A stretch of DNA of 64,000 bases, from IMG/VR virus record IMGVR_UViG_3300033388_006651, positions 64,001-128,000 of that record. One strand, given 5' to 3'. Of the stretch, positions 331 through 21,757 are shown piece by piece; position 1 is the first letter of the stretch, and every line of letters starts with the position of its first letter. The DNA comes from a virus. The notes beneath the pieces were generated by a model, which worked only from the letters and a program-made list of their open reading frames with translations, made no database searches and had not been told where the DNA came from. Made by a program: the position numbers and the translations under genes.

Positions 331-348
331 CATGATGAAGTACTTTAG

Positions 349-422
349 TGAGCCCAGAAGGATTTGAACCTTCGACCGTCGGATTAAAAGTCCGTTGCTC
401 TACCAGACTGAGCTATGGGCCC
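349..422 (-). tRNA. tRNA-Lys(UUU)
   Basis: Reverse complement GGGCCCA-TAGCTCAG..ACGGA CTTTTAA TCCGA..GGTTCAAATCC..TGGGCTC-A. Confidence 0.95.
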
Positions 423-450
423 AAAGAAAAGGTGAAATGAAAAAATCGGC

Positions 451-840
451 TTGGGGTATGCTGAGAATATGAGGTCGTTCTTCCGAAAATTGCTGACGAG
501 GATTGGGTTTTTGTCCGAGCCTCTGCCCCGGCCCAAAATCTCCTTTAACCTCAGTAGACAAGAGCGGTTGGATTTCCTTTCAGAGCATGGAGGGCGAACC
601 GAGAAGAGTCTTACCGCGCTTATGAATACCCACGGCCCGCATGAAGCCTTAGCCTGCTTGACGGGATCGGAGTTGTTCGGGGTCCAGCAAAGTCGGGTGG
701 GGGTGCCGTCGAAACTCTTTACCCTCGTCTGCTTGGGAATCACAAACCAGAATGGGGAAATGACTAGCTTTGGGCTAACTTTCGCCTATGCCTTGCAGGA
801 GCACCCCATCCAAGCCGTGCTTGAAGGCTCTATCATCTGA
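451..840 (+). CDS. hypothetical protein
   Basis: 129-aa ORF between tRNA and HNH gene; start may be the ATG at 469. Confidence 0.55.
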   Translation: MGYAENMRSFFRKLLTRIGFLSEPLPRPKISFNLSRQERLDFLSEHGGRTEKSLTALMNTHGPHEALACLTGSELFGVQQSRVGVPSKLFTLVCLGITNQNGEMTSFGLTFAYALQEHPIQAVLEGSII

Positions 841-841
841 G

Positions 842-1279
842 CTATGAGCCGAATTCAAGTTTCTTGTACCAGCCAAGCGTTCTGGCCGTTTTTTTCCGGT
901 GACAGTTTGCGCACCGGATCTCACATTTGAGGATTTCTGCTGCTACGCGTTTCCAGGATGCGTCTCGGATCATTTTGGACACGTTGCCTTTTTTCTTGCC
1001 CCGGACATGATCAAAGTCCAAAACAATTGGATCATCTTCACCGCAGTCCACACAGGGATGTGCTTCCAGATACTCCAAAGAACGCCTGTAGTTTTCCCGT
1101 TTCAGATTCAGAGCGGATTGCCGTACCGCAGCGCGTGTTTTGGGGCTCTTTCGGTAATGCTTTTTAGATGCCTCACTTGCACAGGCTTTGCATAGAGACT
1201 GAAGGCCGTCTCGTTTTTGTGCGTTTTTGTAGAACTCTGCACGTTTCTTTTCACTTTTGCATTTAGGGCAGGTCTTCAT
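842..1279 (-). CDS. HNH endonuclease with N-terminal Zn ribbon, within the tRNA-Lys cluster
   Basis: CPKC...CKAC, then CVDCG....LDFDHVRG.K...C.IRCANCH phage HNH pattern. Confidence 0.85.
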   Translation of the reverse strand: MKTCPKCKSEKKRAEFYKNAQKRDGLQSLCKACASEASKKHYRKSPKTRAAVRQSALNLKRENYRRSLEYLEAHPCVDCGEDDPIVLDFDHVRGKKKGNVSKMIRDASWKRVAAEILKCEIRCANCHRKKTARTLGWYKKLEFGS

Positions 1280-1295
1280 TTCTCCATCTTAGCGG

Positions 1296-1368
1296 TGAGC
1301 CACCCGGGAGTCGAACCCGGCTTGACGGGGTAAAAACCCGTTGCAATAAACCGCTCTGCCAATGGCCC
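1296..1368 (-). tRNA. tRNA-Lys(UUU), variant
   Basis: GGGCCAT/GTGGCTC acceptor, ACGGG TTTTTAC CCCGT anticodon arm, GGTTCGACTCC T arm. Confidence 0.9.
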
Positions 1369-1371
1369 TTT

Positions 1372-1439
1372 GGGGGCCAGCAGATCACAGCCGTTGCGGG
1401 GTAAAAACCCGACGTAACAAACCACTGTACTACCGGCCC
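1372..1439 (-). tRNA. degenerate tRNA-Lys(UUU)-like RNA lacking a canonical T arm
   Basis: GGGCCGG/CTGGCCC acceptor and TTTTTAC loop as in the neighbour, but no GTTCRA. Confidence 0.55.
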
Positions 1440-1494
1440 AAGGTTGGAGCGGGAGTACGTTTGAGTGTGTCGTGATGGAGATACATGGTGTCCT

Positions 1495-1647
1495 TTAGCG
1501 GCGAACAGGCCGTGTGGAAAAGTGATGCCCGCAACTGGAGCAGAGGTAAGGTAACGGTGGCCTCCGACGCCTCCAACGTGGCTGGGTGCAGAGTGTCGTG
1601 TCAGTGCTTTCGCACTTCGGACATGGGGGTATGGGCTTGGAATCCAT
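1495..1647 (-). CDS. small Zn-ribbon protein
   Basis: MDSKPIPPCPKC...YLCSSCGH; ATG just after the tRNA 3' end. Confidence 0.55.
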   Translation of the reverse strand: MDSKPIPPCPKCESTDTTLCTQPRWRRRRPPLPYLCSSCGHHFSTRPVRR

Positions 1648-1657
1648 CGTTTTGTAG

Positions 1658-1730
1658 TGAGCCAGGGTGGAATTGAACCACCGCATCCGGGTTAAGAATC
1701 CGACGCTCTAACCAACTGAGCTACTGGCCC
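1658..1730 (-). tRNA. tRNA-Lys(CUU)
   Basis: GGGCCAG acceptor, TTCTTAA loop, GGTTCAATTCC T arm. Confidence 0.9.
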
Positions 1731-1819
1731 TAAATGGCAGCAGGTTCACGGCACGACGCAACGCCGACGTGTCTGCTACCCGTGATCGGCATCGGTCTTT
1801 CGTACCGTGCCGATCACGT

Positions 1820-1896
1820 TGGTGAGCGGGGAGGGATTTGAACCCTCGACCCAGTGATTAAGAGTCACTTGCACAACCAGACTGTGCTTCCCGCCC
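1820..1896 (-). tRNA. tRNA-Lys(CUU), CCA encoded
   Basis: GGGCGGG/CCCGCTC-ACCA, AGTGA CTCTTAA TCACT. Confidence 0.95.
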
Positions 1897-4596: not shown

Positions 4597-5604
4597 TCAA
4601 GAAGGGCAGAACGTGACGGTGTAGTTCACCAGGCCATTGGTTTTGCGGCAGTTGAAGGTCGCGGCTTTGTCATCGAACATCCAGGCGTACACCTGGGGAC
4701 AGCTCGCTTTGACGTTGGCGATGTAGCTCTGGCTCGTCGCATCCCAGGCCCGAGCTTTGTTGCTGTCCCAGGGGTTGCAGGTCTGGCCCTCCGGGTTGGG
4801 AGGGGTGCTGTAGGGAGAGCACCCGTAGGCGCACTTGGCGTCCCCACAAACGATCGGTTTCGACATCGAGCACGAGCAGCACAGCTTCGTCTGAGTGCTC
4901 GCAGGGTCCCCGCTGTTGACCGCGTTCTGGCACGGGCTCCAGCAGCTATCCCCTCCGGCGCTCAGACCACTGGGGCACGTCGGGGTCGAGGTGCAGCCCG
5001 ACACCGTGCACCACGGAGCCTGGAGACCAGGATCGGGTACGGGGTTGAAGGTCCCAGCAACGGCCACGATGGCGACAGGCTCGCTCCACCCGTCCACGAA
5101 GCTCACGTCGTAGGTGTCGTACGGACCCAGTCCTCCCATGGCATCGAAGGTGAACTCGGCGATCCCCACGGGAGCTTTCCCCGAGTAGGCGCACTCGAGC
5201 CCGAAGGTCTTGTTGTCCGAGGTGAGGCACGATCCGCTGGTGCAGCACGGCGTGAAGCCGTCGCACAGGTTCTGGTTGTTGAAGGTGCAACCGGTACGGG
5301 GCCAGATGCGACCGCTCCATCCCACGTCCACTTGGAGGGTCGTGGTGTCGGTGCCAGATCCGGCCGCTCCCATCTCCCAGCCACCGTTGTTGAGCCCGCT
5401 GAACCCGCTGTTGCCGACCGAGCCGACCCACACAGAGCTGGTGCACTTGTTGACGAAGTTCACCGTGTGCGTGGTCGGCGGGGTCCCCATGTCCAGTTTG
5501 GCCACTTCCGTGGGGGGATCAACGGCTGCTTCGCCGTCGGATCCTTTACAGGCAACCAGGGCCAGAGAGAACGCACCGAGGGACCAGAGTTTGCGAGCCA
5601 TCAC
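4597..5604 (-). CDS. thaumatin-like (PR-5 family) lipoprotein
   Basis: FVNKC..VWVG, GRIWPRTGC, EFTF, YDVSFVDG, CWSPC, CPQVYAWMFDD; LVAC lipobox. Confidence 0.9.
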   Translation of the reverse strand: MMARKLWSLGAFSLALVACKGSDGEAAVDPPTEVAKLDMGTPPTTHTVNFVNKCTSSVWVGSVGNSGFSGLNNGGWEMGAAGSGTDTTTLQVDVGWSGRIWPRTGCTFNNQNLCDGFTPCCTSGSCLTSDNKTFGLECAYSGKAPVGIAEFTFDAMGGLGPYDTYDVSFVDGWSEPVAIVAVAGTFNPVPDPGLQAPWCTVSGCTSTPTCPSGLSAGGDSCWSPCQNAVNSGDPASTQTKLCCSCSMSKPIVCGDAKCAYGCSPYSTPPNPEGQTCNPWDSNKARAWDATSQSYIANVKASCPQVYAWMFDDKAATFNCRKTNGLVNYTVTFCPS

Positions 5605-5638
5605 TCAAGGAGGTCCTCATAGGGGTAAAAATGATGAC

Positions 5639-6844
5639 ATGCTCGTCCTGTTCCCGTCTGACCCTTTTGAGACCTACAAGCCCGAGCCGGACTACGTCCA
5701 GGAGATCGAGATCGCAAAAGAGTGCGGCCACGAGGTTGCCTTCATCCATTGGGAAGCCCTGGTGAACGATGACGACGCTGCCGCGGCCATCAGGAAGGTT
5801 CCTGTTTTCGAGGATTCCACCCCTGCCATCTACCGGGGTTGGATGCTGACCTCCGAGCAGTACGAGAAGCTCTACGCAGAGCTCCAGATCCATGACGTTG
5901 ATCTGTTGACCACTCCCGACGCCTACCGTAAGGCCCATGAGTTCCCTGGGTGGTACTTGGAGATCCCGAAAGCGACTCCGGCGTCGGCGATCATCCAGAA
6001 GCATGAGATCAGCATGGAGAGGCTGCTCAGCAGGGCCAAGGAGATGCTCGAACAGTACGAGCACGGCATCATCATCAAGGACTACGTGAAAAGTCGGAAG
6101 CACGAGTGGGAGGAGGCGTGCTTCATCCCCGATATGTCCAAAGCTGAGGTGGTGATCGCCAACTTCCTCGAGCGCCAGGGTGACGCTCTCCAAGGCGGCG
6201 TTGTGCTCCGGGAGTTCGTGCCGCTCAAGTCGATCGGTAAGCACCCTGACTCGGGGATGCCAATGGGCGAGGAGTTCCGCATCTTCTGGATGAACGGTCG
6301 AGTGGCCGCCGCTGCGGAGTACTGGCCTTCCGAGTTCTACATCGGTGAGGAGCGTGAAGATGAGAACGCAGGTGACGGGAGCACGTACCGTGTGCCTCAT
6401 GCCCTGAGCACTCTCCCCGATCCACAGTCGCTTCTCGAACTCCTCGAAAACATCGACAACCCGTTCGTCTCGATGGACCTTGCGCGTGCCGAGGATGGTG
6501 AGTGGTTCGTCATGGAGATCGGCGACGGTCAGGTCTCTGGGCTCCCGCGCCCCAAGCTCGATGCCCGGCTCATTTACAGCCGGCTCGATCGGTTGCTCGG
6601 GCCTCCTGGGCTTGCCTCGGACGCGACACCGATGACCCAGGCACAGTTCGCCGGTATGACGTGCCACGCCGAAGGCTGCGACCACACCGGCCACGACACC
6701 GAGATGTACCTGCACCCCAAGTGCCACGTCGGTTCTCCGACCTGGGCGATTTACGAGGACGGCGTCATCAACGTGAAGTGTGCCGAGTGCAAGACGCTCG
6801 TGGTCAGAATCGCGGTTGACCCCGGTACGGTCGTCGAAGATTAG
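5639..6844 (+). CDS. ATP-grasp protein (R2K-like) with C-terminal Cys/His domain
   Basis: IYRGWML, IIKDYVKSRKHEW.EACFI, EFRIF, MDLA..EIGDGQVSG; start reassigned to ATG 5639. Confidence 0.75.
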   Translation: MLVLFPSDPFETYKPEPDYVQEIEIAKECGHEVAFIHWEALVNDDDAAAAIRKVPVFEDSTPAIYRGWMLTSEQYEKLYAELQIHDVDLLTTPDAYRKAHEFPGWYLEIPKATPASAIIQKHEISMERLLSRAKEMLEQYEHGIIIKDYVKSRKHEWEEACFIPDMSKAEVVIANFLERQGDALQGGVVLREFVPLKSIGKHPDSGMPMGEEFRIFWMNGRVAAAAEYWPSEFYIGEEREDENAGDGSTYRVPHALSTLPDPQSLLELLENIDNPFVSMDLARAEDGEWFVMEIGDGQVSGLPRPKLDARLIYSRLDRLLGPPGLASDATPMTQAQFAGMTCHAEGCDHTGHDTEMYLHPKCHVGSPTWAIYEDGVINVKCAECKTLVVRIAVDPGTVVED

Positions 6845-7050
6845 AGGGCGTGGTCTCGAATGGCCTTGGTCAGCCGGCGCACTTTATTGGTGAAAATAGA
6901 GTAGAACCGGGGGTCCACTTCGTGCAGGAGATGGAGGAGAGATTCGATCTCGGCCTCGGCATCTTCCTGGTCCACGATGTTCTTGGCGACGGCACGGGTG
7001 CAGTCGGGCTGAGAGGTGAGCCAGTGGTTGATGCGTTCTTCGTAAGTCAC
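6841..7050 (-). CDS. hypothetical protein
   Basis: 69-aa helical ORF. Confidence 0.5.
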   Translation of the reverse strand: MTYEERINHWLTSQPDCTRAVAKNIVDQEDAEAEIESLLHLLHEVDPRFYSIFTNKVRRLTKAIRDHAL

Positions 7051-7119
7051 GATCTAGGTGTATCGCAGGGTCTTGATCCGCCTCGGATCAAGCGCCGTCG
7101 AGAAAGTTGAAGAATTCGT

Positions 7120-7148
7120 TTGACTCGGCGTCTTAGTCCGCGTACACA
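7120..7148 (+). promoter_or_regulatory. sigma70-like promoter of the main tRNA operon
   Basis: TTGACT-N17-TACACA. Confidence 0.65.
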
Positions 7149-7195
7149 GAAATGGTCGCCGTCCCTTGGCAGGAACGCGACTCAAAGTCCCCGCC

Positions 7196-7288
7196 ATGAA
7201 ACACTCCACGACATACACAGCTACGACAACGACTACGGTCGTCGTGGCCGTCGTATTGCCCATTATGGGCGATATGACCTCGTGTTGA
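7196..7288 (+). promoter_or_regulatory. Thr/Val-rich leader peptide MKHSTTYTATTTTTVVVAVVLPIMGDMTSC*
   Basis: 9 Thr and 5 Val in 30 codons; followed by hairpin TTCCCGGCG/CGCCGGGAA. Confidence 0.75.
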
Positions 7289-7380
7289 GCATTTCCCGGC
7301 GTTGACCAAAACATCAAACGGCGCCGGGAACCCCCAAAGGGTTTGCTTCGCACGTTCAAAGGCCACGCTGGCTCCCATTC

Positions 7381-7456
7381 GCCGGTGTAGCTCAATTGGT
7401 AGAGCACTGGTTTTGTAAACCAGGGGTTGCGGGTTCGAGTCCCATTACCGGCTCCA
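7381..7456 (+). tRNA. tRNA-Thr(UGU)
   Basis: CTGGT TTTGTAA ACCAG; CCA end. Confidence 0.95.
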
Positions 7457-7487
7457 AGTATTTCTCTTCACCCAAGGAACAGACAAC

Positions 7488-7562
7488 GCCTTTGTAGCTC
7501 AGTGGTAGAGCAGCTCATTCGTAACGAGCAGGTCGTGGGTTCGATTCCCACCTTGGGCTCCA
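7488..7562 (+). tRNA. tRNA-Thr(CGU)
   Basis: TTCGTAA loop; CCA end. Confidence 0.92.
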
Positions 7563-7564
7563 AG

Positions 7565-7603
7565 CACCAACACCAACACCAACACCAACACCAACACCAT
7601 CAC
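7565..7603 (+). repeat. (CACCAA)n hexamer tandem repeat between tRNA-Thr genes
   Basis: caccaa x5 followed by caccatcac. Confidence 0.9.
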
Positions 7604-7611
7604 CGACATAA

Positions 7612-7686
7612 GCCCTTGTAGCTCAGTGGAAGAGCGCTTCCTTGGTAAGGAAGAAGTCACGAGTTCGATTCTCGTCTTGGGCTCCA
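7612..7686 (+). tRNA. tRNA-Thr(GGU)
   Basis: CTTCC TTGGTAA GGAAG; CCA end. Confidence 0.93.
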
Positions 7687-7837
7687 GGAACGCAGGACCC
7701 TCGTTCGAAGGTCACAAGCAAAAGGTAAAGACATCTGTTTTTCACACAGAAGACTGCGAGTTCGATTCTCGCCTTCCCCGCCATTTATGGGGAAGTGGTC
7801 ATAAGACGCACTCACCCCGCACACTCTCCTGCGTTCC
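7687..7837 (+). ncRNA. CACAAGC-module RNA carrying a circularly permuted tRNA-Glu(UUC)
   Basis: Outer stem GGAACGCAGGA/TCCTGCGTTCC; tRNA 3' part (7724-7783, ends GCCA) precedes the 5' part GGGGAAG-TG-GTC (7789-7804). Confidence 0.8.
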
Positions 7838-7854
7838 TTAATTTTCACCCTAAT

Positions 7855-7937
7855 CCCAGCGCCTCGTAGAGCGAGGCACACGACAGCAGCTTCGCTTCGA
7901 GGCGAAAATGGCAGGCGACCGGACGGCCTGTGGGATC
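7855..7937 (+). ncRNA. putative multibranch structured RNA
   Basis: ATCCCA/TGGGAT closing stem around three hairpins. Confidence 0.4.
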
Positions 7938-7998
7938 AAACAACCGATTTTTCTCAACCCCAACTTCAACCCCCAACGAACAGAAAGGACCGAGCACG

Positions 7999-8136
7999 AT
8001 GAACATCGAAAACGATGACTGCGATGATGTAGATGATACCTACGGAGCAGTGGCGCAGTTGGTAGCGCACTCGGTTGTCAGCCGAAAGGTCGCCGGTTCA
8101 AGTCCGGTCTGTTCCGCCAAGGGGGTGTTGGTCTAG
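7999..8136 (+). promoter_or_regulatory. Asp-rich leader ORF MNIENDDCDDVDDTY... reading through tRNA-Asp
   Basis: GAAAGGA RBS; 6 Asp in 8 codons directly before tRNA-Asp; stop inside the second tRNA-Asp. Confidence 0.75.
8044..8119 (+). tRNA. tRNA-Asp(GUC)
   Basis: TTGTCAG loop; GCCA end. Confidence 0.92.
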
Positions 8137-8198
8137 TTGGTTATGACGCTTCCCTGTCACGGAAGAAATCGCGGGTTCAAGTCCCGCACATCCCGCCA
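8122..8198 (+). tRNA. tRNA-Asp(GUC)
   Basis: CTTCC CTGTCAC GGAAG; GCCA end. Confidence 0.95.
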
Positions 8199-8204
8199 TT
8201 TTTT

Positions 8205-8279
8205 AGTCCTGTAGCTCAGTGGAAGAGCATTCCCGTCACATGGGAGAGGCCATCGGTTCGACCCCGATTGGGACTACCA
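8205..8279 (+). tRNA. tRNA-Val(CAC)
   Basis: TTCCC GTCACAT GGGAG; ACCA end. Confidence 0.88.
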
Positions 8280-8288
8280 AGAAAACAT

Positions 8289-8363
8289 AGCTCCGTAGCT
8301 CAGTGGCAGAGCAACACCTCGACATGGTGAAGGTCGTCGGTTCGATCCCGACTGGGGCTACCA
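8289..8363 (+). tRNA. tRNA-Val(GAC)
   Basis: ACACC TCGACAT GGTGA (C33); ACCA end. Confidence 0.88.
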
Positions 8364-8422
8364 ACACAACAAGTTACTAAGACACAAGGCCCTCCGTTCC
8401 ATTTTGTGCTACGCTCAGAAGA

Positions 8423-9097
8423 GTGAAGCCGGACAAACAAAAAGAGGCGCGTAGACTGCGTAAGCAGGGCCTTTCTTTGAGTGAGATCGTTACCAAAATT
8501 GGATGCGCAAAAAGTTCGGTTAGCCGCTGGACCCGGGATATCCCTCTCACTAAGACTCAAGTCAAAAACCTTCGACGAAAGGAAGATCAAGGACGACTTA
8601 AAGGCCGTATTGCAGCCGCTACCCATCCCAACTCTCCGAAACAGGTGTGGGCTAAAAAACGAGATGAAGCACGTCAAAAAGGGCACGAAGAGATTTCCCG
8701 GATCGATGACATCTCTCTCAAAATACTCATCGCGGCACTGTACTGGGGGGAAGGGTCAAAGGGTCGTAACAGTTTTTCCATAGCGAACACGGACCCTGCA
8801 ATGGTCCGCCTTATTGCCGCCTTTCTTCGAAAACATTGTCAAGTTCCTGAAGAGCGCCTTCGTTTTCGCGTCTACATTCATCCTCATTTGAGTCTCCGAA
8901 AAGCTCGTATTTACTGGGCTAAAATTGCAGGAACCTCCCCTAAAAATATCGCATCCACCACCGCTGTAAGCTCAGCTAGCCAAGGAAAGAAGGACTCGTG
9001 CCCTTACGGCACTTTTCAAATCACGTACTGTGACACCCTGTTTCGGTCTCGCATAGAAGGCTGGATGGATGCCTTGAAAGAACAGATACCGGGTTAG
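8423..9097 (+). CDS. HTH plus LAGLIDADG-like endonuclease inserted in the tRNA-Val cluster
   Basis: N-terminal HTH (GLSLSEI..KSSVSRW), ALYWGEG..F.IANTDP motif; more AT-rich codons; stop lies inside tRNA-Val(UAC). Confidence 0.7.
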   Translation: MKPDKQKEARRLRKQGLSLSEIVTKIGCAKSSVSRWTRDIPLTKTQVKNLRRKEDQGRLKGRIAAATHPNSPKQVWAKKRDEARQKGHEEISRIDDISLKILIAALYWGEGSKGRNSFSIANTDPAMVRLIAAFLRKHCQVPEERLRFRVYIHPHLSLRKARIYWAKIAGTSPKNIASTTAVSSASQGKKDSCPYGTFQITYCDTLFRSRIEGWMDALKEQIPG

Positions 9098-9161
9098 CTC
9101 AGTGGTAGAGCGCTGCCCTTACAAGACGGATGCAAGAGTTCAATTCTCTTACCCGGTACCA
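9088..9161 (+). tRNA. tRNA-Val(UAC)
   Basis: CTTACAA loop; ACCGGGT/ACCCGGT-ACCA. Confidence 0.9.
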
Positions 9162-9201
9162 GACCTCAAACCTCAACCTCTAACCACGAAAGGAACCGAC
9201 C

Positions 9202-9264
9202 ATGGAAAAAGAAGACAGCGACATTAGCGACATTATCTACTCGGCCCGTGGTCCAGTCTGGTAA
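9202..9264 (+). promoter_or_regulatory. Ile-containing leader ORF MEKEDSDISDIIYSARGPVW* reading into tRNA-Ile
   Basis: GAAAGGA RBS; ATT, ATT, ATC codons just before tRNA-Ile(GAU); stop in the D-loop. Confidence 0.65.
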
Positions 9265-9316
9265 TGGATGTCGCTCTGATAAGGCGAAGACGGAGGTTCA
9301 AATCCTCCCGGGCCGA
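9242..9316 (+). tRNA. tRNA-Ile(GAU)
   Basis: TCGCT CTGATAA GGCGA; CGGCCCG/CGGGCCG-A. Confidence 0.9.
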
Positions 9317-9326
9317 CCGACTACAT

Positions 9327-9403
9327 GGACGTGTAGCTCAGTTGGTTAGAGCGCAGCCCTGATAAGGCTGAAGTCGAAAGTTCAAATCTTTCTACGTCCA
9401 CCA
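9327..9403 (+). tRNA. tRNA-Ile(GAU)
   Basis: CAGCC CTGATAA GGCTG; ACCA end. Confidence 0.95.
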
Positions 9404-9424
9404 AGAGATTTCCAAAACACATAT

Positions 9425-9499
9425 AGCGGGATGGCGCAGTCAGGTAGCGCGCTGGGCTCATAACCCAGAGGTCGTCGGTTCAAATCCAACTCTCCGCTA
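9425..9499 (+). tRNA. tRNA-Met(CAU), initiator-like
   Basis: CTGGG CTCATAA CCCAG with three G-C pairs; small acceptor-stem irregularity. Confidence 0.88.
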
Positions 9500-9505
9500 C
9501 TAAGG

Positions 9506-9663
9506 GCAGTAGAAGTCTGCTTGCGAAATATCTCCCTTCACCGGGAAGAGACGCTAGCGAACAAAACTTCATCCTCGCAACGGAGTTGAGGGGAGAGCAG
9601 TAGGAGATCTGCTTGCGACAATAGGCCCCGTAACTGGGTATCGAAGATAGCGAACAAAACTCC
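9506..9663 (+). ncRNA. tandem pair of a structured RNA motif (GCAGTAG..TCTGCTTGCGA-hairpin-TAGCGAACAAAACT)
   Basis: Two copies, 9506-9570 and 9597-9663, with conserved flanks and different central hairpins. Confidence 0.65.
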
Positions 9664-9672
9664 AACACTTGA

Positions 9673-9750
9673 CGCGGGTTGGGGAAGTCCGGCCATCCCG
9701 GTGGGCTCATAATCCACAGACCCTCGGTTCAAATCCGAGACCCGCTACCA
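9673..9750 (+). tRNA. tRNA-fMet(CAU)
   Basis: C1-U72 mismatch, CTCATAA loop, ACCA end. Confidence 0.92.
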
Positions 9751-9809
9751 AATCCAGTTCGACAGTGTGCGCCCGTGCGAGCCGAACCGAGTGTAGAAAC
9801 GGGCCTCAT

Positions 9810-9887
9810 GCCAGAATAGCTCAGTTGGTTAAGAGCGCTCCCCTCATAAGGGAGAGGTCATCGGTTCAAATCCGATTTCTGGTACCA
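9810..9887 (+). tRNA. tRNA-Met(CAU), elongator or Ile2 type
   Basis: CTCCC CTCATAA GGGAG; ACCA end. Confidence 0.9.
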
Positions 9888-9904
9888 CAAGAAACCAAGA
9901 AGCC

Positions 9905-10018
9905 ATGAACATCCACCTGAAACAGTTGCCCATCGGCACGGCCAGTCGCATCTCGTTGTTTGCGGCCGGACAGGTGTGTTCTGCCTATCTCCCCAATCTG
10001 GAGACAGGTAGCGGATAA
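9905..10018 (+). promoter_or_regulatory. 37-aa leader peptide of a putative attenuator
   Basis: MNIHLKQLPIGTASRISLFAAGQVCSAYLPNLETGSG* just before alternative terminator/antiterminator pairings. Confidence 0.55.
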
Positions 10019-10041
10019 CCCTCAGCTCGATCATGGCGCCT

Positions 10042-10077
10042 AAAAGCCCGTCGAGCTCCCTGCTCGCCGGGCTTTTT
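10042..10077 (+). terminator. intrinsic terminator (attenuator)
   Basis: AAAAGCCCG-TCGAGC..GCTCG-CCGGGCTTTTT; AGCTCGA at 10024 can sequester the 5' arm. Confidence 0.75.
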
Positions 10078-10245
10078 CGTGCTCGGGCCAAGGATCAACG
10101 GCCCTCTCGAGCCCTTTTTCGCCAAACCCTCCCTGGGCCCTCCTTTTCGGACATTTTCACGAACTTTTCACGAACCAAACCAACCACGGGGTACAAGGGA
10201 CGAGCCCGAGTGCTCTGCTTTTCACGAATCAGGACAGACAAGCCA

Positions 10246-12114
10246 ATGGACAACAAAGAAACACTCGGACCCGCAGAGACCATCATCCAGTCACTGCTGG
10301 CCTACTCAGATCACATCTACCACGGCCGCCCCGGCGTCGTGGTGCCCGACGCGCGATCCACGACCGGAGTGCGATGGGACCCCGTCACCCACAAGGTCGG
10401 AGAGGACGGCGTCAAGACCGTTCTTCGCCTCACGCGAAACGGCAAGAAGACCATTCGTACCGAGATCGGCACGATGAACGGCGACAATCGTGTGAAGAAC
10501 GCGGGTGCCGATGTCGGCCTGTACCGCAAGAGCGGCCTCTTCCCAGAGGTTGCCCTGTGGTTCTACAAGCAGATCGCTGAGGTGTGGACGCTCGACAACG
10601 AATTCGCTGCTCGGTGGGCGTCGTACGCCTTCCGTCAGGAGCACCGTGACCTCAAGGTCATGCTCGCTGCGTTCATGCTCGTTCAGTCGCGTAAGGGCGA
10701 CCCCGTCATGGACGGGGGTGAGCGTCTGTTCGACGACGAGGACTACCGTGACGTGGGCGAGGCCATGGTCCTTCTCCTTGAGAAGGGCAACGACCTCAAC
10801 CCGAAGCTCCTGCTTCGGATCTACGATGTCCTGAACCTGCCCGAGATCGCAAAGATCAACCACGAGCTCGGCTTCGGCAAGTCCGCCAAGCGTCCGTTCC
10901 TCGGTCGTTGGCCCAAGGCGATCGACAAGTACCTTCGGTACCGCGAGGAGAACCCGAAGCTGCTCGAAGGGCTCGTCAACAAGGCTGCTTTCGGCAACAC
11001 CGTCAAGACTCTGGCTCGGCGTATCGGCTACAAGCCAACGTCCGACAAGTTCTTCGCTACCCTACGCTGGAAGCAGAAGCAGGCTGAAGACGGGCGTCGT
11101 GAGATGGCCATCGGTAAAGCCGTGAGGGCTGCTGAGTCGTGGGATCACCTCGACGAAGCCGGTGTTTGCGAGCTCATCGAGAAGAACAAGCCTGGCTGGA
11201 AGCGGATCGTGGGTCTCCTTCCTGCGAAGATCGGGGTCACCCGTGCGGTGATGGCTGCGACCATCGAGTCGGGCGGTCTCTCGGACAAGGATCTCATCAT
11301 CCTCACTCCAACGATCGAGGATCTTGGTCTGTTCAAGGTCCAGGAGATCAAGGCGCGTCATGCTGCGGCTCTCGCCAAGGCAAGCGACATGCGTGCGGCT
11401 AACATCGCCCGCAACGTTCGGTCCAAGGATCTCAAGGAGGAGATGGAGACCGGTGCCGACAAGGCAGCTCAGAAGGCTGCTGAGGAGGTCATCAAGAACC
11501 TGCGCCTCTACGTCGTCATCGACCGTTCGGCGTCGATGCAGGGAGCACTGGAGAAGGCGAAGCCACTGATCGCCAAGCTCATTCAGGCAATCCCAGCCGA
11601 GCGTCTGCACGTTTCGACGTTCAACACGATCGGTAAGGTGATCACCTTCAAGCACCACTCGACCGCTGGGGTCGAGGCAGCTTTCCGGGGCGTCAACGCC
11701 GGAGGGGGCACGGTGCACGCAGAAGGTGTTCGGGTTCTGGCTCAGTTCCCGCCTGCGGCAGACGAGGACTCCCTGATGATCTTCATCGGGGACGAGGGCG
11801 AGCGTCGGCACTTTGCCGAAGCTGTGGAGGCATCTGGTCTCCGTCCCCTGGCCTTCGGGCTCCTCGCCACGGTGGGTCCTCGTTGGGGTCGCGGTCAGGC
11901 GATTCGGGACACGGCTGCTCGACTGGACATCCCGTGCTTCGAGATCGATGACCGCACCTTTGATGGCGACCCGTACGCCATCCCGCGTACGATCAGGAAC
12001 CTGATCGCGGCTACCCCTGTGGGGGTGAACACCGGTCGTCGCGTCGTCCCGCGCGTGACGCTGGTGGGTCAGATCCTGGAGACCGAGATTCTCCAGAAGC
12101 CCAACTGGGCATAG
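10246..12114 (+). CDS. Ro60/TROVE-like protein with C-terminal vWA domain
   Basis: Long basic helical N-terminal region plus VIDRSASM MIDAS, GGGT, FIGDEG; the Ro60 relationship is inferred from architecture and ncRNA context; start reassigned to 10246. Confidence 0.6.
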   Translation: MDNKETLGPAETIIQSLLAYSDHIYHGRPGVVVPDARSTTGVRWDPVTHKVGEDGVKTVLRLTRNGKKTIRTEIGTMNGDNRVKNAGADVGLYRKSGLFPEVALWFYKQIAEVWTLDNEFAARWASYAFRQEHRDLKVMLAAFMLVQSRKGDPVMDGGERLFDDEDYRDVGEAMVLLLEKGNDLNPKLLLRIYDVLNLPEIAKINHELGFGKSAKRPFLGRWPKAIDKYLRYREENPKLLEGLVNKAAFGNTVKTLARRIGYKPTSDKFFATLRWKQKQAEDGRREMAIGKAVRAAESWDHLDEAGVCELIEKNKPGWKRIVGLLPAKIGVTRAVMAATIESGGLSDKDLIILTPTIEDLGLFKVQEIKARHAAALAKASDMRAANIARNVRSKDLKEEMETGADKAAQKAAEEVIKNLRLYVVIDRSASMQGALEKAKPLIAKLIQAIPAERLHVSTFNTIGKVITFKHHSTAGVEAAFRGVNAGGGTVHAEGVRVLAQFPPAADEDSLMIFIGDEGERRHFAEAVEASGLRPLAFGLLATVGPRWGRGQAIRDTAARLDIPCFEIDDRTFDGDPYAIPRTIRNLIAATPVGVNTGRRVVPRVTLVGQILETEILQKPNWA

Positions 12115-15729: not shown

Positions 15730-16280
15730 GAGTCGGAGCACTGGGCTCACACCTCGTGCAAGCTCTTCGGAACGAGAAGGTGACCCTCAAGGTCATCGAC
15801 TTCGACCGCGTCGAGATGAAGAACGTCGCTTCTCAGTTTCACTTCAAGAACGGAGTGGGCAAAAAGAAGGTCGATGCTCTCAAGCAGGCGATGCAATTCT
15901 GCTACGGCCGGAAGATCGAGATCGTGGGCAACAAGCTCACGGCGGACAACGTTGACCAGCTCCTGGGCGACGCTGACCTGCTCGTGGACTGCCTGGACAA
16001 CGGAGAAGCCCGGACGCTCGTCCAGGGCTTCGCTCGAGCCAATGGGGTGCCGTGCGTGCACGGAGCTCTTGCGGCCGATGGTGGCTTCGGTAGGGCCGTA
16101 TGGACTTCCGGTTTTGTTATTGACAGCGAGACATTGGGTGCGGCAACATGTGAAGACGGTGCCTTCCTCCCGTTCATCCAGCTCGTTGCCACACGCCTCG
16201 CGTACGTCGTCCAGCGATTCCTCCAAACTGGGGAGAAGCACAACTTCAACATCTTCCCCGGCGGCGTCACTAAATTCTAG
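15711..16280 (+). CDS. ThiF/MoeB/E1-like adenylyltransferase
   Basis: IIGVGALG, IDFDRVEMKN..SQ, GKKKV, VDCLDN..AR; candidate catalytic Cys in ATCED. Confidence 0.9.
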   Translation: MKITIIGVGALGSHLVQALRNEKVTLKVIDFDRVEMKNVASQFHFKNGVGKKKVDALKQAMQFCYGRKIEIVGNKLTADNVDQLLGDADLLVDCLDNGEARTLVQGFARANGVPCVHGALAADGGFGRAVWTSGFVIDSETLGAATCEDGAFLPFIQLVATRLAYVVQRFLQTGEKHNFNIFPGGVTKF

Positions 16281-16284
16281 GGCC

Positions 16285-17265
16285 GTGTGTCGAGGGACCC
16301 GGCGCACTGCTCACCTCGACATTGACGCGCTCGTGCGGGGTTACGAAACCGGCGACAGTGCCCAGACGCTGGCGAAGAAATTCAACACTGGACGTTCCAC
16401 CGTACTCACCCGGTTACGGGAAGCCGGGGTGCGAATTCGGCGTCCTTCTGAATGGGAAGAGAAACATCTGGTTCTCCTCCCCCAACACGAGGAACCTTTC
16501 ATCGAGCTCCTTGATGGCCTCATGCTCGGAGACGGCACTCTCCCTCGTGACGGGGGGCTTCGCATTGAACAGAGCCATGTGCGTCACGGGTGGTTGAAAG
16601 ACATCCAACAGGAGCTGCGGGGTTTTGGGGTGAAGAGTACGATGGACGAAGTTATACGGCCCGAAAGGGCCCGCAAAGACGGACGAATCCTTTCGGCCTA
16701 TAGGGGGTTTCTTTTGCGCACTCCTGCTTACGTTGAACTTCGCTCACAACGACAGCGATGGTATCCAGGTGATGTAAAACGCATTCCTGACGATGTGCGT
16801 ATCACCAAAAAATCTGTTGCGGCCTGGGTAAGTGGGGACGGCACAGGAGGTAAGAAGGGCACGCTGGTTCTTTGCACCGATGATTTCACCGAAGAAGGAG
16901 TCGGTCTGCTGATTGACCGACTCAAAGAGGTTTTTAATGTTAAGGCTCGACGCGTTTCAGGTGAACGACCTCGAGTCGGCCTTTACCGGAAAAATGATGT
17001 GCTCCGACTTCGTGAGGTCCTTCTCCCACACATGTCGAAATGCTGTCGGTACAAGTTCCAACACGCCCGTGGCGCCCAAAGGAAAGGGAAACTCCCCGAG
17101 GCGTCCGTGCAGGCTATTCGTGGAAAGTACGACGAGGGGGTCACGTTGAGCGTGATCGCAAAGGAGCATGGGCTGAGTCGGTCAGCCGTCAACAACATTG
17201 GTCTGCGGAAAGTGTACAAGTGGGTGGCTGAGACGGCCGTTCCAGCCACCGTCGAAGAAAGTTGA
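16285..17265 (+). CDS. free-standing LAGLIDADG homing endonuclease, paralogue of 14281
   Basis: GLMLGDGT, AAWVSGDG, YVELRSQRQRWYP shared with the paralogue; start uncertain. Confidence 0.85.
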   Translation: MCRGTRRTAHLDIDALVRGYETGDSAQTLAKKFNTGRSTVLTRLREAGVRIRRPSEWEEKHLVLLPQHEEPFIELLDGLMLGDGTLPRDGGLRIEQSHVRHGWLKDIQQELRGFGVKSTMDEVIRPERARKDGRILSAYRGFLLRTPAYVELRSQRQRWYPGDVKRIPDDVRITKKSVAAWVSGDGTGGKKGTLVLCTDDFTEEGVGLLIDRLKEVFNVKARRVSGERPRVGLYRKNDVLRLREVLLPHMSKCCRYKFQHARGAQRKGKLPEASVQAIRGKYDEGVTLSVIAKEHGLSRSAVNNIGLRKVYKWVAETAVPATVEES

Positions 17266-21602: not shown

Positions 21603-21680
21603 CGGTTTCAAGGTAACTCTCATGTTGACGCAAGCACATACCCAGCTCCCCGATGCGGGAGCCGACTACAACACCATCAT

Positions 21681-21757
21681 GGTGTCCGTAGCTCAGTTGG
21701 TAGAGCGTTCGCTTGTGACGCGAGAGGCCGCGGGTTCAAACCCCGTCGGACACCCCA
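21681..21757 (+). tRNA. tRNA-His(GUG)
   Basis: G-1/C73, TTCGC TTGTGAC GCGAG, CCA end. Confidence 0.95.

Follow-up and report, generated by a model that had tools for sequence, protein, structure and literature searches.

The tRNA-Asp genes of an uncultured phage are preceded by a mini-ORF in which Asp codons predominate, with its own Shine-Dalgarno (SD) site and ATG start codon. The same arrangement of SD, ATG and Asp-rich mini-ORF placed against tRNA-Asp is present in 13 sequence-distinct phage loci (the window and 12 relatives from IMG/VR and JGI metagenomes), although these loci are kin by descent and locus counts therefore overstate their independence. The window is the whole stretch of DNA that was analysed, 64,000 nucleotides in length. 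From the comparison of these sequences we propose that the Asp leader is translated and gauges charged tRNA-Asp in cis, from within the precursor of the phage's own tRNA-Asp, and we put the probability of this reading at about 0.5. The broader statement, that the leader serves as a cognate-tRNA sensor tuning tRNA output, seems somewhat more probable.

The Asp leader and its tRNA-Asp pair

The window corresponds to bases 64001–128000 of a single virus record (146.8 kb, 59% G+C), which is a fragment of a giant uncultured phage, given its CheckV completeness of ~28%. All of the 20–22 tRNA genes of the record lie inside the window. A blastn comparison with the INPHARED phages found no close cultured relative, with matches at the tRNA level only.

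All elements of the Asp module are on the plus strand. A C-rich, G-poor spacer (7944–7982; 40% C and 7% G over -60 to -16), common to the Asp module and an Ile module described below, precedes the Shine-Dalgarno site GAAAGGA (7983–7989), which is 9 nt ahead of the ATG (7999–8001) of a 15-codon mini-ORF (MNIENDDCDDVDDTY; 7999–8043) that is free of stop codons up to the tRNA. The Asp-codon block, DDCDDVDD (8014–8037), has six Asp in eight codons (5 GAT and 1 GAC). Early Asp codons are 23–42 nt upstream of the tRNA, the last two occupy nt -12 to -7, and the final one ends 6 nt ahead of tRNA +1. The tRNA-Asp(GUC) gene that follows (copy 1, 8044–8119; ARAGORN; Rfam 61.9 bits) has an encoded CCA and is itself followed by a second tRNA-Asp(GUC) gene of different sequence (copy 2, 8122–8198; ARAGORN; Rfam 65.4 bits), which has no leader of its own. 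The leader frame is open across tRNA-Asp 1 and ends at a TAG (8134–8136) in the D-arm of tRNA-Asp 2. The original prediction had noted a strong ribosome binding site (GAAAGGA), six Asp in eight codons, and a frame running through tRNA-Asp 1 to a stop in tRNA-Asp 2, and this description is exact. The tRNA-Asp has the features of a canonical elongator (cloverleaf, GUC anticodon, Rfam score above threshold), and its anticodon stem has compensatory changes among the relatives.

The tandem tRNA-Asp(GUC) genes (8044–8198) have strongly divergent sequences and five relatives retain both of them, which suggests that they are two functionally distinct tRNA-Asp species with the same anticodon. Directly upstream of the Asp leader there is a conserved RNA-like stretch (7687–7837), also present ahead of the leader in the relative L002, that contains a partial tRNA match (7717–7772; 30.2 bits) and a weak match to permuted tmRNA.

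Conserved and variable features among relatives

Relatives were collected with the VWA-domain protein encoded close downstream of the tRNA array (10033–12114) as bait, yielding 6 IMG/VR loci and 80 metagenome loci, and a pattern scan added three further loci. The protein encoded immediately upstream of the array (5210–6844) belongs to the R2K clade of ATP-grasp proteins (Pfam R2K_3, E 1e-32), and its use as bait found no relatives.

The 13 leaders vary in length (8–20 codons) and in their non-Asp residues, and contain between three and eight Asp codons, with the minimum in L163. The leader of L001, for example, reads MADDDDDDRL, that of L002 has a run of eight Asp, and in L178 MDSPDDDD precedes a stop. 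When the leaders are pooled, Asp accounts for 78 of the 153 non-Met residues (51%) and Glu for only 5 (3%), which argues for selection on Asp codons rather than on acidity. Ten loci have 6 nt, and the other three 5 nt, from the end of the last Asp codon to tRNA +1, and this codon is GAT (GAU) in 12 of the 13. GAT makes up 64% of leader Asp codons, compared to 28–51% in long ORFs on most of these contigs and 62% in those of L163. In the close clade the first and second positions of the Asp codons are invariant while the third positions alternate between T and C and the interspersed codons vary freely, a pattern that marks codon identity as the target of selection. Among the remaining 12 leaders, most have GAAAGGA, GAAAGGAGG or a one-base variant as the SD site, with that of L163 being degenerate, and in the ten leaders with available upstream sequence the SD ends about 5–9 nt from the ATG.

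The body of the tRNA-Asp sequence differs between loci and the leader stays with it, while the upstream neighbour may be tRNA-Thr, tRNA-Met, tRNA-Arg, a tRNA-like RNA, or a protein gene. Among 526 distinct upstream regions of tRNAs in the family, Asp-rich SD-led mini-ORFs occur at tRNA-Asp only; three leaders counted under tRNA-Val or tRNA-Trp are tRNA-Asp leaders viewed from the next downstream tRNA. Only the first of two tRNA-Asp genes is preceded by a leader, even where an HNH-like gene splits the pair. The latter organization is seen in L212, in which an HNH-endonuclease-like ORF with a CxxC...H motif (1783–2160) is situated between the two genes, and the second tRNA-Asp is leaderless. In L133, L215 and L163 the entire inter-tRNA spacer (53–60 nt) consists of the SD and the mini-ORF, so in these phages the leader is part of a polycistronic pre-tRNA transcript and can have no promoter of its own in that spacer. 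The C-rich spacer ahead of the SD is present in the window, L002, L138 and L176, but is missing where the leader directly follows a tRNA (L133, L215, L163 and L140), the corresponding stretch being tRNA sequence. Seven family loci have a tRNA-Asp without a leader, and the leader is therefore dispensable.

The original prediction also held that the leader is translated straight through the tRNA, and as a conserved feature this does not stand. The frame is open through the entire tRNA in the window clade, L001, L002, L140 and L163, representing five of eight independent tRNA-Asp types, which is no excess over the background of 0.45 for the same phase in 536 family tRNAs and gives no sign of selection for an open frame. 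The frame closes early in the other three types: L178 has its stop 2 nt short of the tRNA, and in L176 and L212 the stop falls inside the tRNA, at positions 7–9 and 20–22, respectively. What all of the loci would share is arrival of the ribosome at the junction between leader and tRNA, not the unfolding of an entire tRNA.

We also searched for the design more widely. A scan of IMG/VR with SD-ATG-(GAY)6 gave, among the matches listed, mostly out-of-frame GATGAT repeats and N-terminal poly-Asp proteins, and the L002 contig was the only one of these with a tRNA. A strict scan combining (GAY)5 with tRNA-Asp features returned the L002 and L003 contigs, together with two chance matches that were rejected, one at a protein C-terminus before a tRNA-Thr and the other at a site within a gene. 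The leader design was found in none of the 80 bacterial and archaeal loci among the matches listed in a search with the reverse complement of DDxDD (one genome per prokaryote species), suggesting that it is absent from cells.

Models for leader action

Like an attenuator, the Asp module has an SD, a start codon and a short ORF, kept in the 13 loci, and a cluster of cognate codons. There is, however, no intrinsic terminator between the leader and the tRNA, and the 6 nt from the last Asp codon to tRNA +1 leave no space for one; a promoter and terminator scan found nothing on the plus strand, where 6800–10200 has no terminator-like site. The absence of a terminator had been correctly anticipated in the original prediction. 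Minimum free energy folds of eight leader-plus-tRNA units share no alternative pairing, and three of them keep the cloverleaf. Only tRNA is matched in Rfam at the gathering score, and likewise at E <= 1 in 7690–8130, with no match to the His, Thr, Leu, Trp or Phe leaders, and the Asp locus has no match to the T-box (specifier loop and T-box sequence, Rfam model). A conserved arrest peptide is not seen in the 13 loci either, with Asp alone being kept. The lack of a terminator, of conserved alternative pairing and of an Rfam leader match rules out identity with a classical attenuator; the Asp leader lacks the structural features of that class but has its sensing principle.

We propose that the strong SD on a polycistronic pre-tRNA transcript would load ribosomes onto the leader, where they would read a short frame in which about half of the codons specify Asp. 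The ribosome unwinds RNA at a point ~11 nt downstream of the first P-site base. When the A site holds the last Asp codon, the P site begins at -12 and the unwinding point is at about -2, so that all of the Asp codons could be read while the tRNA stays folded, and by this helicase position the fixed 6-nt spacing would let decoding of the last Asp codon coincide exactly with arrival of the ribosome front at the 5' end of the tRNA. A ribosome on any Asp codon would thus remain just outside the tRNA, and the next translocations would carry it onto the site of RNase P cleavage and the 5' side of the acceptor stem. Fast decoding of Asp would give a steady arrival of ribosomes at the junction, hindering acceptor-stem formation and 5' cleavage and reducing the amount of mature tRNA-Asp, whereas when charged tRNA-Asp is scarce ribosomes would pause at the early Asp codons, and the tRNA could fold and be cut free. 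The outcome would be tRNA-Asp homeostasis without a terminator. Occlusion of the junction is a tentative choice of mechanism, which we think less likely than not.

A feedback switch of this general kind was part of the original prediction, in which abundant Asp-tRNA lets ribosomes run over and unfold the pre-tRNA. The conserved, translation-shaped leader of cognate codons without a terminator fits a ribosome gauge of Asp-tRNA, but unfolding by read-through of the whole tRNA does not fit L178, L176 and L212, in which the frame stops early. Action at the junction is preferred here because read-through is not conserved and arrival at the junction would be common to all loci. Against a gauge, acidic runs near the N-terminus can by themselves abort translation (intrinsic ribosome destabilization, IRD; PMC12340396), which could stop ribosomes from reaching the junction, and the leader is missing from seven family loci and has just three Asp in L163.

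A paused ribosome could instead act on transcription or on survival of the transcript, by blocking Rho or by shielding the precursor from nucleases, such that scarcity of Asp-tRNA raises the production of tRNA-Asp. The reasoning is that of junction occlusion, with a different step under control. Runs of cognate codons suit any stalling sensor, and the C-rich, G-poor spacer of the window, L002, L138 and L176 resembles a Rho loading site; however, this spacer is missing from the four loci in which the leader directly follows a tRNA, the plus strand has no terminator-like site, and the fixed 5–6 nt spacing to tRNA +1 is left unexplained. We regard this explanation as rather improbable.

Abortive translation by an acidic nascent chain (IRD) is less probable still. 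The poly-Asp N-terminus would destabilize the ribosome and cause drop-off of peptidyl-tRNA-Asp, and the leader would sense Mg2+ or the state of the ribosome, or would tie up tRNA-Asp, much as the lambda bar minigenes tie up tRNA-Ile. The leader has an acidic run, as do the Ile leaders, and a frame acting in this way requires no stop codon; consecutive acidic residues near the N-terminus are described as a known IRD trigger where PMC12340396 cites Chadani 2017. IRD works with Glu too, yet the near-exclusion of Glu from the leaders points to codon identity rather than charge, the leaders rich in Lys or Thr within these arrays are non-acidic, and the link to the cognate tRNA is not explained.

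There is a similarly small chance that the leader is a translated spacer without any sensing role, either a ribosome landing pad that sets the order in which adjacent tRNAs are processed or a GAY repeat that is selectively neutral and is carried along with tRNA-Asp. The absence of the leader from some relatives would be consistent with this, but 13 diverged sequences, in several array contexts, retain the SD, the ATG, the reading frame, the Asp identity and the spacing while the spacer otherwise changes, and a paralog is re-specified to Ile codons ahead of tRNA-Ile. Finally, a chance ORF or a gene miscalled over tRNA genes is extremely improbable, for although tRNA-overlapping ORFs are common artefacts (most SD-plus-ATG frames beside other family tRNAs are such), the random-pattern matches in the 80 bacterial and archaeal loci among the matches listed never coincide with a tRNA, and the retention of the design in 12 relatives already contradicts it. 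The Asp leader is not a product of chance, since nine-codon segments with at least six Asp occur only twice in all six frames of the 146.8 kb record, one of them being the leader itself, and the comparative data are the decisive evidence.

Related leaders and known systems

Leaders are also present before other tRNAs. An Ile module (9202–9242, plus strand), consisting of an SD and a mini-ORF with three Ile codons that abuts tRNA-Ile, aligns with the Asp module with a score of 49 (shuffled sequences give 15.8 +/- 6.5), and codon by codon the xDD xDD of the Asp module corresponds to xDI xDI. By this alignment the Ile leader is a paralogous copy of the Asp module, re-specified to the tRNA that follows it, and Ile leaders are found in seven relatives. 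A Thr-rich leader of 30 codons with its own stop (7196–7288, plus strand) lies ~90 nt ahead of a tRNA-Thr trio and is conserved in L001 and L002. Lys-rich SD-led mini-ORFs (3–4 Lys in 8–13 codons) abut tRNA-Lys(UUU) in four relatives (L168 at about 110–140, L170 at about 2360–2395, L180 at about 1630–1674, and L198 at about 870–905); our screen found no abutting Lys mini-ORF at the tRNA-Lys genes of the window (348–1896, minus strand). The family as a whole has 28 homo-rich mini-ORF events, and in 15 of them the codons are cognate to the following tRNA.

The spacer between tRNA-Thr(CGU) and tRNA-Thr(GGU) is filled by a (CACCAA)n hexamer repeat (7563–7606) that is rich in Thr codons when read in two of its three frames, as TN or PT repeats, with no SD or ATG seen. 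Just ahead of the tRNA-His at 21682 there are three His codons (21640–21690) in a frame without an ATG, and the conserved MLT.AHT start is in a different frame. The corresponding leader of L002 (14870–14924), ahead of its tRNA-His, is intact, with 16 codons that include HHH, and the copy in the window may be frameshifted.

Among known systems the closest in principle are the leader-peptide attenuators (E. coli hisL, thrL, pheL, ilvL and trpL, and pheM of pheST), which likewise place a cluster of codons cognate to what they regulate in a short ORF with an SD, and in which the speed of the ribosome on these codons is a measure of charged tRNA supply. The cognate-codon leaders known so far act on operons for amino acids and, in one case, on a synthetase operon. 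The Asp leader differs in having no terminator, no antiterminator pairing and (unlike L178) no stop before its target, in the 6 nt that separate the last sensing codon from the target, in a target that is a tRNA gene rather than a biosynthetic or synthetase gene, and in lacking an Rfam leader match. In ermCL, tnaC and mgtL the position of the leader ribosome sets access to adjacent RNA, with mgtL also using codon and acidic or proline features. The Asp leader resembles these, all of which act without an intrinsic terminator, in that the ribosome on a leader ORF would govern access to an adjacent RNA site. They depend, however, on particular arrest peptides or on the sensing of small molecules, and what they expose is an SD or a Rho site, whereas the peptide of the Asp leader is free except for Asp and the adjacent site is the tRNA 5' end. 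T-box riboswitches also sense the status of a specific tRNA and control a gene of the same amino-acid system, but bind the uncharged tRNA directly via a specifier codon with no need for a ribosome. The bar minigenes of phage lambda are alike in being phage-borne mini-ORFs that have an SD and, when translated, interact with the pool of a single tRNA species; they differ in that they are 2-codon ORFs with a stop, are unlinked to a tRNA gene, and act by peptidyl-tRNA drop-off. In the literature searched we found no leader ORFs controlling tRNA genes, and no description of feedback on individual tRNA genes by their own charged product.

If the gauge operates as proposed, the sensing principle of attenuators would have been re-used on tRNA itself without a terminator, implying a new control point at which the ribosome and RNase P compete for one RNA. 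This would explain how huge phages with dozens of tRNAs match their tRNA output to demand or to the loss of host tRNAs, and would offer a very small, codon-programmable part for synthetic control at the tRNA level. A wider view, which we consider unlikely but conceivable, is that cognate-codon mini-ORFs form a class of modular, re-programmable giant-phage sensors, in which loss of a given host tRNA (through anticodon nucleases of host defence or the phage's own shut-off) would trigger maturation of the phage counterpart of that tRNA, acting directly where ribosome and RNase P meet on a bifunctional mRNA/pre-tRNA and without a terminator or protein factor. The change from xDD to xDI would then be a reset of specificity by codon swap alone.

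Several protein-coding genes near the array are of additional interest. A 224-aa ORF (8423–9097) is inserted between tRNA-Val genes, with its stop codon falling within the 5' end of the tRNA-Val(UAC) at 9088. It has a weak HTH_23 match and a LAGLIDADG-like motif that was spotted by eye, and it probably encodes a homing endonuclease. A clear LAGLIDADG_2 gene is located further downstream (15874–17265). Just ahead of the window there is a gene with an RF-1 (GGQ) domain (G000:C1:63006–63329, minus strand; 220-aa open frame), and a phage release or rescue factor beside non-stop mini-ORFs could have a role in clearing ribosomes off cut leaders.
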